Positions 2,055 to 6,154 of a stretch of 9,826 bases of DNA are shown here, in pieces. Position 1 is the first letter of the stretch; the number at the start of each line of letters is the position of its first letter. Source of the DNA: a virus (taxonomy: Duplodnaviria; Heunggongvirae; Uroviricota; Caudoviricetes); IMG/VR virus record IMGVR_UViG_2619619132_000009; one strand, written 5' to 3'. Position numbers and translations under genes: made by a program. The notes under the pieces were generated by a model that made no database searches, was not told the DNA's origin, and worked only from the letters and a program-made list of their open reading frames with translations.

Positions 2055-4109
2055 ATGTCAGACTCCAAGTGGAAAATGCTCTCCGCCATGCCCGGAGAGT
2101 TTTCAGTCAAGGTTGCCGGTGGCACGGTGGCATTTATTGAAAGCCCTTTCCGCCCTTCGGGTAATAAAGGGGGGATCACCTTCGCAGACTGCGTGATCCG
2201 CTTCAGCACGAAAGAGCCATTATGGGTAATGCCGGTATCCGGTAATCCCAGTGCAGAAATCACCAGTTCAGGCGTGACTGGCATCATTCCAATCACATCT
2301 GACGTGGCCGGAACGCTCACGCCCTCCGACTGGAATGCACCGGATAACGCCGGGCCTTCCGGTAGCACGAATGGCAGCAGTTCAGAGCCGGAATATTACT
2401 TTGTTGTCATTCTCGCGGGTCAGTCAAATGGCATGGCCTACGGCGAGGGGCTGCCGTTACCGGATTCGTTTGACCGCCCGGACCCACGCATTAAGCAACT
2501 GGCACGCCGCAGTACGGTAACGCCCAACGGTACGTCGTGTACATACAACGACATCATTCCGGCAGACCACTGCCTGCATGATGTTCAGGATATGAGCGGG
2601 ATAAACCACCCGAAAGCTGATCTGGCAAAAGGCCAGTACGGGACTGTCGGTCAGGGGTTGCATATTGCCAAAAAACTGCTTCCCTATATCCCACAGAATG
2701 CCGGGATACTTCTGGTGCCCTGTTGTCGTGGCGGGTCAGCATTCACCACTGGAGCCGACGGCTCATTCAGTGAGGCCAGCGGTGCTTCCGCTGATTCTTC
2801 ACGCTGGGGGGCCGGTAAACCTCTGTATCAGGACCTGGTAAGCCGCACCAAAGTCGCGCTGGCGAAAAACCCGAAAAACAAACTTCTGGCTGTGGTCTGG
2901 ATGCAGGGAGAGGCAGACCTTGCCTCAGGAAGCCAGCAGCATAATAGTTTATTCACGGCCATGGTTCAGCAGTTCAGAACTGACCTGGCTCCGCTTGCTG
3001 CGCAGTGCGTGAGTGGAAATGCCACCACGGTGCCGTGGATTTGCGGTGATACCACGTATTACTGGAAAAACGCTGGCACCGATAAATATGAGGCAGTATA
3101 CGGTGGCTACAAAGGCAAGGAAGCACAGAAAATTTTCTTTGTACCGTTCCTGACGGATGAGAATGGACAGAGCACGCCAACGAATGCTCCGGCGGAAGAC
3201 CCGGATATTGTGGCTGTCGGGTATTACGGTGCAGCATCCCGAACCCAGGGCAGTTTTGTTTCGACACAGCGTGACAGCCATTTCAGCTCATGGGCACGCA
3301 GGGGCGTCATTTCAGACCGTCTGGCCTCAGCTATTATGCTCCATGCAGGGCGCACGGCTGAACTGATGCGCGGGCAGACCGTGACACCACCGGATGAGAA
3401 GCCGTCACCTGATACACCATCAAAACCGTCCACGCCACCCGCAGACACCACGACGATGAGTACGCTATTTGCTTACCGGGCATCTGAGTCTGAAGGACGG
3501 TTGACACCACAGGGTTGGGCTGCCGGAGGTGGCAAGGCTCAAATCGTGGATGATGCCGGAGCCAGCGGGGGTAAGGCAATGAAACTGACCAAGGAAACAG
3601 GAAGAGCCCCCTGGTACCTTGAGCATGATGCTGGTAATGGTGCGGACCTGCTGGGTAAAGGTGGTCTTGTCAGTTGTCGTTTTAAACTCGATGGCGCGCT
3701 TACGGCTAATCAGTACGCACTGGCGCTGTACTGGCCGGTTTCTGCCCTGCCGCAAGGGGTTACTCTGGAAGGAAATGCCGGTCATAACCTGCTGGCATCG
3801 TTCTACGTACAGAGCGATGCCACAGACCTTAACGTGATGTATCACAAAGGAAACACGGCGCAGAACACGAAGCTGGGGTCATTCGGCGCATTTAATAACG
3901 AATGGCATACGCTGGGCTTCCGTTTTGCCGGTAACAACAGTATTGAGGTGACGCCGGTCATTGATGGTAAGGACGGGACACCATTCATGCTGTCGCAGTC
4001 TCCGGTCGGCACGTTTACGGCAGACAAGTTGCGCGTGACCGATATCACTAAAAATGCGACTTACCCGGTACTGATTGACAGTATCGTGGTGGAAGTGAAT
4101 AACGCGTAA
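2055..4109 (+). CDS. Prophage NanS-p-like sialate O-acetylesterase (SGNH/SASA esterase) with N-terminal extension and C-terminal lectin-like domain
   Basis: 684 aa. The core YYFVVILAGQSNGMAYGEGLPLPD...PRIKQLARRSTVTP...GILLVPCCRGGSAFT...VWMQGEAD resembles recalled E. coli NanS/YjhS and prophage NanS-p proteins. A P/T/S-rich linker (PPDEKPSPDTPSKPSTPPADTTT) is followed by about 230 aa that look like a beta-sandwich carbohydrate-binding domain. Confidence 0.6.
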   Translation: MSDSKWKMLSAMPGEFSVKVAGGTVAFIESPFRPSGNKGGITFADCVIRFSTKEPLWVMPVSGNPSAEITSSGVTGIIPITSDVAGTLTPSDWNAPDNAGPSGSTNGSSSEPEYYFVVILAGQSNGMAYGEGLPLPDSFDRPDPRIKQLARRSTVTPNGTSCTYNDIIPADHCLHDVQDMSGINHPKADLAKGQYGTVGQGLHIAKKLLPYIPQNAGILLVPCCRGGSAFTTGADGSFSEASGASADSSRWGAGKPLYQDLVSRTKVALAKNPKNKLLAVVWMQGEADLASGSQQHNSLFTAMVQQFRTDLAPLAAQCVSGNATTVPWICGDTTYYWKNAGTDKYEAVYGGYKGKEAQKIFFVPFLTDENGQSTPTNAPAEDPDIVAVGYYGAASRTQGSFVSTQRDSHFSSWARRGVISDRLASAIMLHAGRTAELMRGQTVTPPDEKPSPDTPSKPSTPPADTTTMSTLFAYRASESEGRLTPQGWAAGGGKAQIVDDAGASGGKAMKLTKETGRAPWYLEHDAGNGADLLGKGGLVSCRFKLDGALTANQYALALYWPVSALPQGVTLEGNAGHNLLASFYVQSDATDLNVMYHKGNTAQNTKLGSFGAFNNEWHTLGFRFAGNNSIEVTPVIDGKDGTPFMLSQSPVGTFTADKLRVTDITKNATYPVLIDSIVVEVNNA

Positions 4110-4759: not shown

Positions 4760-4986
4760 ACACTAATGAAAACATCTTTGCCGCTATCCAGCCATATGTA
4801 ATCGCTGGATAGTATTTCGTATTCAGAAATATAGCTGCTTATGGAGCAGTCAATCCTGCTTCCCCATCCGGGCAGGCAAATGAACCGGTATCATTAGTCC
4901 GATTCACGCTTTTGTAGAATCGTTCCCAGAATGCTATACAGCTCATTAGCCTGTTGCTCCATCATTGAGACGGAGGCTATACGGTG

Positions 4987-4995
4987 CAAAGTGAT
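4987..4995. repeat. Left 9-bp target-site duplication of IS1 (CAAAGTGAT)
   Basis: Identical 9-mer directly abuts both IS1 ends (4987-4995 and 5764-5772). Confidence 0.85.
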
Positions 4996-5050
4996 GGTAA
5001 TGCTGCCAACTTACTGATTTAGTGTATGATGGTGATTTTAAGGTGCTTGC

Positions 5051-5326
5051 GTGGCTTCCATTTCCATCAGATGTCCTTCCTGCTCCGCTACTGAAGGCGT
5101 GGTGCGTAACGGCAAAAGTACTGCCGGATATCAGCGCTATCTCTGCTCTCATTGCCGTAAAACATGGCAACTACAGTTCACTTACACCGCCTCTCAGCCC
5201 GGTAAGCACCAGAAAATCATTGATATGGCCATGAATGGCGTCGGATGTCGCGCCAGTGCACGCATTATGGGCGTTGGCCTCAACACGGTTTTACGTCACT
5301 TAAAAAACTCAGGCCGCAGTCGGTAA
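5051..5326 (+). CDS. insA: IS1 InsA (zinc-finger/HTH transposition regulator)
   Basis: [43 protein letters not shown]...[14 protein letters not shown], 91 aa, GTG start. Confidence 0.9.
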
Positions 5327-5748
5327 CCTCGCGCATACAACCGGGCAGTGATGTGATTGTCTGCGCTGAAATGGACGAACAGTGGGGCTACGTCGGTGCT
5401 AAATCACGTCAGCGCTGGCTGTTTTACGCGTATGACAGGATACGGAGGACGGTTGTGGCGCACGTCTTCGGTGAACGCACTCTGGCCACACTGGAGCGTC
5501 TTCTGAGCCTGCTGTCGGCCTTTGAGGTCGTGGTATAGATGACGGATGGCTGGCCGCTGTATGAATCACGCCTGAAGGGAAAGCTGCACGTTATCAGCAA
5601 GCGTTACACTCAGCGCATTGAGCGACATAATCTGAATCTGAGACAACATCTGGCAAGGCTGGGACGGAAGTCACTGTCGTTCTCAAAATCGGTGGAGCTG
5701 CATGACAAGGTCATCGGGCATTATCTGAACATAAAACACTATCAGTAA
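5245..5748 (+). pseudogene. insB: IS1 insB frame interrupted by an in-frame amber codon
   Basis: The InsB frame reads ...LSAFEVVV then TAG at 5536-5538, then [69 protein letters not shown] in the same frame. Canonical IS1 as recalled has ...VVIW MTDGW here, implying TGG to TAG. Confidence 0.7.
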
Positions 5749-5763
5749 GTTGGAGTCATTACC

Positions 5764-5772
5764 CAAAGTGAT
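5764..5772. repeat. Right 9-bp target-site duplication of IS1 (CAAAGTGAT)
   Basis: Identical to 4987-4995. Confidence 0.85.
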
Positions 5773-6154
5773 TTCAGGAGGTGGCACACCTCCATCTTCT
5801 TGCTGTGGAGGAAAAACATAAGATTTAATAAAAAAGTTGAAGCATATGAACTCTCCCGCACTCGAACTGTATTTGCAGGCATCTGAATAATCGGAAAAAT
5901 AATCATTATAGATTTCCGCATTTTCAATCATTTTTCGATTTCTCGTCGTTACATGATTGTCCATAGCAGCCTCTTACGCTGGCAATTAACCAATTGACTT
6001 CTATAAATTAGTTGATTTGTTTGCTTTGCGGTATTCAAATGTACAATCATTCAGCACTTATGCGTTACAGCACCGTTTAAAATTAGTGATCAAACTCATA
6101 AATTTTCGCTAATGACATTTCGTGTTATTTGTTGTATCAATTAAATAAATCAAA

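Follow-up and report, generated by a model that had tools for sequence, protein, structure and literature searches.

An IS1F-type insertion sequence with the K-12 internal stop codon interrupts a gene of a Mu-like prophage

The IS1 isoform IS1F was reportedly first described by Umeda and Ohtsubo in 1991. In Escherichia coli K-12 it is a 768-bp element located between fecI/ykiE and yjhU, and PGAP annotates its transposase as a pseudogene ('programmed frameshift; internal stop'). The copy in K-12 MG1655 corresponds to GenBank entry X52538 (PMC8867978). The consensus form of IS1 (IS1A or IS1E type) is also 768 bp long, with 23-bp terminal inverted repeats, an insA gene, a -1 frameshift at an A6C site, a DDE domain in insB' and target duplications of 8-9 bp; it has Trp at codon 163 and is autonomous. 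MiniIS1 constructs and MITEs have good ends and no working transposase of their own, and they need a related helper, a dependence that PMC12903888 demonstrates for miniIS1 and for IS1F.

Published experiments also bear on the mobility of IS1F. In a K-12 strain whose remaining IS1 copies were IS1B, C, D and F, no insertions were detected (PMC12428005). Under overexpression of consensus InsAB' in trans, IS1F was the source of 44% of the insertions, a share that the authors credit to its ends, which match each other better (PMC12903888). The same paper states that InsAB' prefers to act in cis, so that trans-mobilization is inefficient, which counts against reliance on a helper. IS1F was found in at most five Addgene plasmids (PMC8867978), a scarcity that points to infrequent movement in such hosts as are used in the laboratory. 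The words 'premature' and 'nonsense' are absent from both PMC12428005 and PMC12903888, and none of their examined passages that mention a stop codon concerns IS1F. Our search of the literature for an amber codon in IS1 insB found nothing relevant.

The window analyzed here is a stretch of 9,826 nucleotides from a Caudoviricetes record (IMGVR_UViG_2619619132_000009). It contains an IS1 element of exactly 768 bp on the plus strand at 4996-5763. The left terminal inverted repeat (IRL, GGTAATGCTGCCAACTTACTGAT, 4996-5018, plus strand) and the right one (IRR, GGTAATGACTCCAACTTACTGAT, 5741-5763, minus strand) agree at 20 of 23 positions, and they are the sole two matches to the IS1 end motif across the window, where 0 are expected; the scan, which covered the whole window, revealed no further IS1. 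A length of about 768 bp and imperfect terminal repeats of about 23 bp (GGTRATG...CCAACTTACTGAT) are what is expected of the IS1 family, as is the gene arrangement, in which insA is followed by insB' in the -1 frame via an A6C slippery site. The insA gene (5051-5326, plus strand; GTG start, 91 aa, zinc ribbon and HTH) is intact; it carries a synonymous change (IS position 124) together with the rare H27Y substitution (IS position 134). The slippery site (AAAAAAC, 5302-5308, plus strand), at which a -1 frameshift fuses insA to insB', is intact as well, and the frameshift motif TTAAAAAAC is unbroken at 5300-5308. Within the element we found matches to the Pfam families Zn_ribbon_InsA, HTH_Tnp_IS1 and DDE_Tnp_IS1.

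The element is flanked by a perfect 9-bp repeat, CAAAGTGAT, with its left copy at 4987-4995 and its right copy, which abuts IRR, at 5764-5772. These are the only occurrences of the 9-mer in the window; 0.13 are expected, and two were reached in 1 of 200 shuffles. In E. coli DLI.5a, the same prophage region lacks the IS and carries CAAAGTGAT in a single copy (the empty site in L011). If the IS and one copy of the 9-mer are removed from the window, the rejoined flanks equal the DLI.5a empty site exactly over the 70 bases compared, so that the two 9-mers represent a genuine target-site duplication, of a size within the 8-9 bp usual for IS1. The interrupted gene lies on the minus strand between the DUF826 gene and com/mom of the Mu-like prophage. 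Its 5' part is at 5764-5931 and its 3' part at 4894-4995, coordinates that we obtained by mapping the annotation of the DLI.5a empty site onto the window. In uninterrupted relatives this gene encodes an 86-aa hypothetical prophage protein (WP_000571916.1); in the window, its reading frame continues into the IS (ORF 5683-5964).

While the ends of the element are intact, its transposase is not. The N-terminal part of the insB frame (5245-5538, plus strand) ends at a premature stop and covers only positions 1-61 of the DDE_Tnp_IS1 profile. The stop is a TAG codon at 5536-5538 (plus strand) in place of TGG for Trp163 of InsAB', the same allele as in K-12 IS1F, and the window translation accordingly reads EVVV*MTDGW where an IS1A-type copy has DVVIWMTDGW. 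It falls at codon 163 of the 232 codons of InsAB', the conceptual frameshift product, and splits the Pfam domain at profile position 62 of 131. An in-frame ATG follows directly (GTA TAG ATG ACG), and from it a C-terminal remnant of insB of 69 codons (5539-5748, plus strand) covers profile positions 63-131. An autonomous IS is expected to have an uninterrupted transposase frame with a complete catalytic domain; judged from the sequence, a complete InsAB' with its full catalytic domain cannot come from one reading frame here. The site lacks CCWGG on inspection by eye and hence shows no Dcm hotspot for recurrent G-to-A change. The stop within the DDE domain is also the simplest explanation of the immobility of K-12 IS1F.

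These results agree with the first-pass annotation of this stretch, which had described an IS1 of exactly 768 bp between identical 9-mers, with its frameshift motif and both terminal repeats intact and with TAG at 5536-5538 in place of a canonical Trp. That annotation had further proposed that the copy is probably non-autonomous and could move only with transposase supplied in trans. The halved DDE domain supports this proposal, as do the pseudogene status of the K-12 allele and its failure to move on its own.

Alignment to IS1 isoforms, which had been suggested as a check, places the element in the IS1F type. It differs from K-12 MG1655 IS1F by 5 mismatches (99.35% identity) and from an IS1A-type copy by 70 mismatches (90.9% identity), and its best database matches, at 99.6-99.9%, are labeled as transposase of the 'IS1-like element IS1F family'. 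With near-identity to K-12 IS1F and a clear separation from IS1A, B and D, it is an ordinary IS1F-type IS1; elements of this kind are already known, and what is new is the site. The K-12 copy has the same length, IRL, IRR and A6C site, and TAG at the same codon. However, the window copy sits elsewhere, in a gene of a Mu-like prophage, and has a perfect 9-bp target duplication, while the fec-linked copies have none. It also has rare substitutions at IS positions 124 and 134, and those of K-12 at 156, 677 and 703 are absent from it.

The closest relative that we found is a copy in E. coli MS 21-1 (NZ_CP146670.1, 4743191-4743958), which equals the window copy at 767 of 768 positions, including both rare T markers. 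The sole difference is at 5537, where MS 21-1 has G and the window has A; codon 163 is thus TGG (Trp) in the MS 21-1 copy, whose annotation describes the transposase as intact, with a programmed frameshift. It lies at a locus beside a basic amino acid/polyamine antiporter gene. Compared with consensus IS1, the window element differs by about 9% of its nucleotides (the 70 mismatches given above), begins its IRL with GGTAATG instead of GGTGATG, has the better match between its two repeats (20 of 23 positions, versus 18 of 23 in the IS1A type) and has TAG in place of Trp163. Its likeness to miniIS1 constructs and MITEs lies in its good ends, its lack of a working transposase and its need for a related helper. 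Unlike them, it is full length and retains the coding sequence of the InsA repressor, and its defect stems from one nonsense codon and not from a deletion inside the element.

To follow the TAG allele across genomes we used the exact 41-mer at 5517-5557, centered on the stop, so that every match must contain A at 5537. It occurred at 3855 places in 2971 of the 5426 complete E. coli genomes, about half of them, with a median of 1 and a maximum of 5 per genome, and with 35 places on plasmids. The copy is usually single in a genome and beside fecI. The corresponding TGG 41-mer was found at 17933 places in 3295 complete E. coli genomes (median 3, maximum 46), 2412 of them on plasmids. IS1 of any kind was present in 4971 of the 5426 genomes, with a median of 11 places per IS1-bearing genome. 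Among the 72,556 plasmids of PLSDB, 41 contained the TAG 41-mer, while IS1 occurred in more than 5000. The fec-linked copies of ATCC 8739, Nissle 1917, O145 RM9872, 720632 and 300709 are annotated with an internal stop, as in K-12. The TAG codon is therefore the standard K-12 IS1F allele, shared by descent, and not private to the window copy.

A functional isoform family in which insB is naturally split had been raised in the first-pass annotation as a reading that would overturn its own. What we found instead was the pattern of a pseudogene: TAG copies are low in number, another stop appears at IS position 322 in copies of the Nissle type, and decayed copies have lengths of 712, 753, 762, 771 and 786 bp. 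Downstream of the stop, 38 TAG copies showed 7 synonymous and 4 non-synonymous changes, a comparison that involves few events and is confounded by recombination. A scan for the TAG pattern in contigs representing one genome per species returned one E. coli genome and one Archangium contig, and is uninformative on species range. The latter (NZ_JPMI01000182.1, Archangium violaceum Cb vi76, 547 bp) joins an amber IS1F end to the right flank found in K-12, between IS1F and yjhU, and is most likely E. coli K-12 contamination of the Archangium assembly.

We surveyed the junctions of TAG copies in complete genomes, 46 metagenome contigs, 1 IMG/VR contig and 8 plasmid copies. In approximately 25 distinct junction contexts, the window site was the only one with a target-site duplication. 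On the left, the fec-linked copies share a single junction, beside ykiE-fecI, and on the right they have at least five different ones; among the sequences at these right junctions are yjhU, a phosphoethanolamine-transferase remnant with an integrase, a fimH remnant and IS3 remnants. None of the fec-linked IS1F copies examined for a target duplication (L002, L005-L007, L009, L010 and many metagenome loci) had one. One left junction, several right junctions and no duplication together indicate that the fec-linked IS1F is a recurrent point of rearrangement beside the fec operon. On plasmids, the same TAG IS1F haplotype (A at IS position 276 and C at 636) was seen in the E. coli IncK2/Z plasmid pEGY2 and in the Enterobacter roggenkampii plasmid pEk140_mcr-10, with different flanks on both sides and no target duplication in either.

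The rare T at IS positions 124 and 134 of the window copy, which we call the two-T haplotype as opposed to the common two-C form, provides a second marker. The pair occurred in 3 of the 5426 complete E. coli genomes, at one place each, and all three copies lie at the same locus beside the antiporter gene, where the IS1F is bounded by that gene and by IS3 remnants. A scan of metagenome contigs for the two-T pair gave no match, and a scan of viral contigs gave only L013. At the antiporter locus, the MS 21-1 copy (L001) is two-T with TGG and intact, the copies in JSWP006 (L079) and MINF_7C (L080) are two-T with TAG and have four other differences, and a metagenome contig (L030) is two-C with TAG. 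These three interiors at one locus suggest that the amber codon was reverted or converted to Trp in MS 21-1, or the reverse. In three further copies (L014-L016), two-T is combined with TGG and then a 2-bp deletion; a 6-bp deletion and an A at IS position 750 are found both in them and in the fec-linked copy of O145. Thus all four combinations of two-T or two-C with TAG or TGG exist, and these, together with the three interiors at a single locus, make it clear that IS1F copies commonly exchange sequence by recombination or gene conversion.

The prophage around the element also showed several features. Mu-like sequence ends at about 7240, just after mom, and is followed by a 5'-truncated Ag43/AIDA-type autotransporter gene (7242-9200) and then a DUF905 gene (9235-9504). 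The neighbor of this prophage end in DLI.5a is a truncated ypdB; with different neighbors at its end, this is apparently a transposable phage present at different chromosomal sites. Genes of the Mu Gp44-48 tail type lie upstream of the window in L064. At the left edge of the window, an inverted repeat of 142 nt with 95% complementarity (1-142 and 1178-1319) encloses a 1035-nt segment that holds a tail fiber assembly gene on the minus strand (385-906). Adjoining this segment is a gene for a serine invertase of the Gin/Pin family (1397-1969), which is intact here and frameshifted in DLI.5a. The repeat-bounded segment looks like an invertible host-range switch of the Mu G-segment type. A 684-aa prophage protein (2055-4109), whose gene is flanked by the invertase gene on one side and the DUF1378 and DUF826 genes on the other, has a SASA carbohydrate-esterase domain and a DUF6645 domain, and is possibly the product of an accessory gene for modifying surface polysaccharides.

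The insertion is not confined to the window. Two NCBI assemblies, GCA_029997295.1 and GCA_012338075.1, carry this insertion as well, and their IS matches that of the window over its full length at 100% identity, TAG included; the IMG/VR contig UViG_2617270947_000010 is identical across the left junction and the first 746 bases of the IS, again with TAG. The junction-spanning ORF is present on seven contigs, and four metagenome contigs end 118-127 bases into the IS. Neither the insertion nor the prophage-Ag43 arrangement was found in the complete E. coli genomes of our collection. Because it recurs in several assemblies, the insertion is a marker of a circulating lineage, and its TAG codon is reproducible. 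A metagenome scaffold (L065; ENA ERZ28648651 scaffold_670) has identical insertion junctions around an interior with TGG, four other differences and neither T marker. Since the four metagenome contigs mentioned above break 118-127 bases inside the IS, we set this scaffold aside; its interior is most likely a collapsed-repeat path through another IS1 copy. If so, an intact IS1F-type copy was present in that sample.

Taken together, these data support, with a probability of about 0.85, the reading that an IS1F-type IS1 inserted by ordinary transposition into a gene of a Mu-like prophage, and that this copy, with W163*, is now non-autonomous. Ordinary IS1 transposition into the small hypothetical prophage gene would have produced the 9-bp target duplication. 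The InsAB' frameshift product of this copy ends after the zinc ribbon, the HTH and the first half of the DDE domain. The copy should still be able to make the InsA repressor and to offer good ends, while any move, deletion or inversion would need InsAB' from another IS1 in the same cell. The inverted repeats of the window copy are identical to those of K-12 IS1F, which has been mobilized in trans, and its ends are therefore probably usable by a helper.

Whether the stop preceded the insertion is a closer question. On balance, we lean slightly toward a donor that already carried TAG, so that the insertion was catalyzed in trans; the likely donor would be a two-T-marked copy at the antiporter locus, as in JSWP006, MINF_7C and MS 21-1. 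Because copies with both two-T and TAG exist at that locus, such a donor needs one change fewer at IS position 542. Several observations argue against this order of events: only the window site has a target duplication among the approximately 25 TAG junction contexts, so simple insertion of a TAG copy is rare; MS 21-1 has an intact copy that agrees with the window copy at all 767 remaining positions; and IS1F interiors are mosaic relative to their junctions, so that TAG could have been copied in after insertion. Alternatively, an intact, autonomous two-T copy with TGG, like that of MS 21-1, which differs from the window copy at 5537 alone, may have transposed itself and acquired TAG later by conversion, for example from a fec-linked copy, a course of events that we consider possible and somewhat doubtful. 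TGG copies multiply, and most new insertions with a target duplication would be expected to come from them. Mosaic copies such as L014-L016 and the three interiors at the antiporter locus show the kind of exchange needed, and conversion around position 542 would otherwise go unnoticed if its tract were shorter than about 350 bp. However, self-transposition requires the one extra change at position 542, and the two-T lineage is rare and single-copy (3 of 5426 genomes), unlike an actively multiplying element. Moreover, leaving aside assembly that runs straight through the repeat, three assemblies of this insertion reach 5537, and TAG is present in each. Self-transposition followed by conversion is only slightly less economical than a TAG donor. 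The first-pass annotation had also allowed that the stop arose after insertion; this idea is still live in the form of gene conversion from a TAG copy, while a de novo mutation is very unlikely. An independent G-to-A change is much less likely than conversion, since only about one in the 2304 possible single substitutions would recreate the allele, and a mutation private to this copy is at odds with the same TAG in three other assemblies of the insertion and in 2971 genomes.

It might also be asked whether the amber codon inactivates the transposase at all. Readthrough of UAG, or re-initiation at the ATG that follows TAG directly and in frame, could yield a full-length or two-piece transposase with some activity, in which case IS1F-TAG would be a self-throttled autonomous isoform that made the window insertion itself. 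The allele is old and widespread, and TAG copies occur in some 25 junction contexts, some of them on Enterobacter and E. fergusonii plasmids. However, variable junctions have other sources as well, namely helper-driven events and homologous recombination among IS copies, the stop falls within the DDE domain, TAG copies are low in number with extra stops and deletions, and insertions were undetectable in K-12 once its IS1 copies were reduced to IS1B, C, D and F (PMC12428005). We therefore regard residual activity as very improbable. Least credible of all is a sequencing or assembly error that hides a true TGG, a candidate that we rejected. It could appeal to the metagenome scaffold that spans the same insertion with TGG, but that scaffold passes through the repeat, has four other IS differences and lacks the two-T markers, as a collapsed path most likely would. 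The two NCBI assemblies and the IMG/VR contig all carry TAG at the same insertion with 100% identity, and the allele itself is found in thousands of complete genomes.

This feature is correctly annotated as an IS1 of the IS1F type, inserted in a small hypothetical gene of a Mu-like prophage, whose transposase is a pseudogene because of the internal stop standard for IS1F. Beyond correct annotation the finding has little significance in itself. Nevertheless, because this is the sole site with a target duplication among the approximately 25 junction contexts of amber IS1F copies, the window copy may be a natural case of the trans-mobilization of IS1F, which has so far been shown only with transposase overexpressed in the laboratory.
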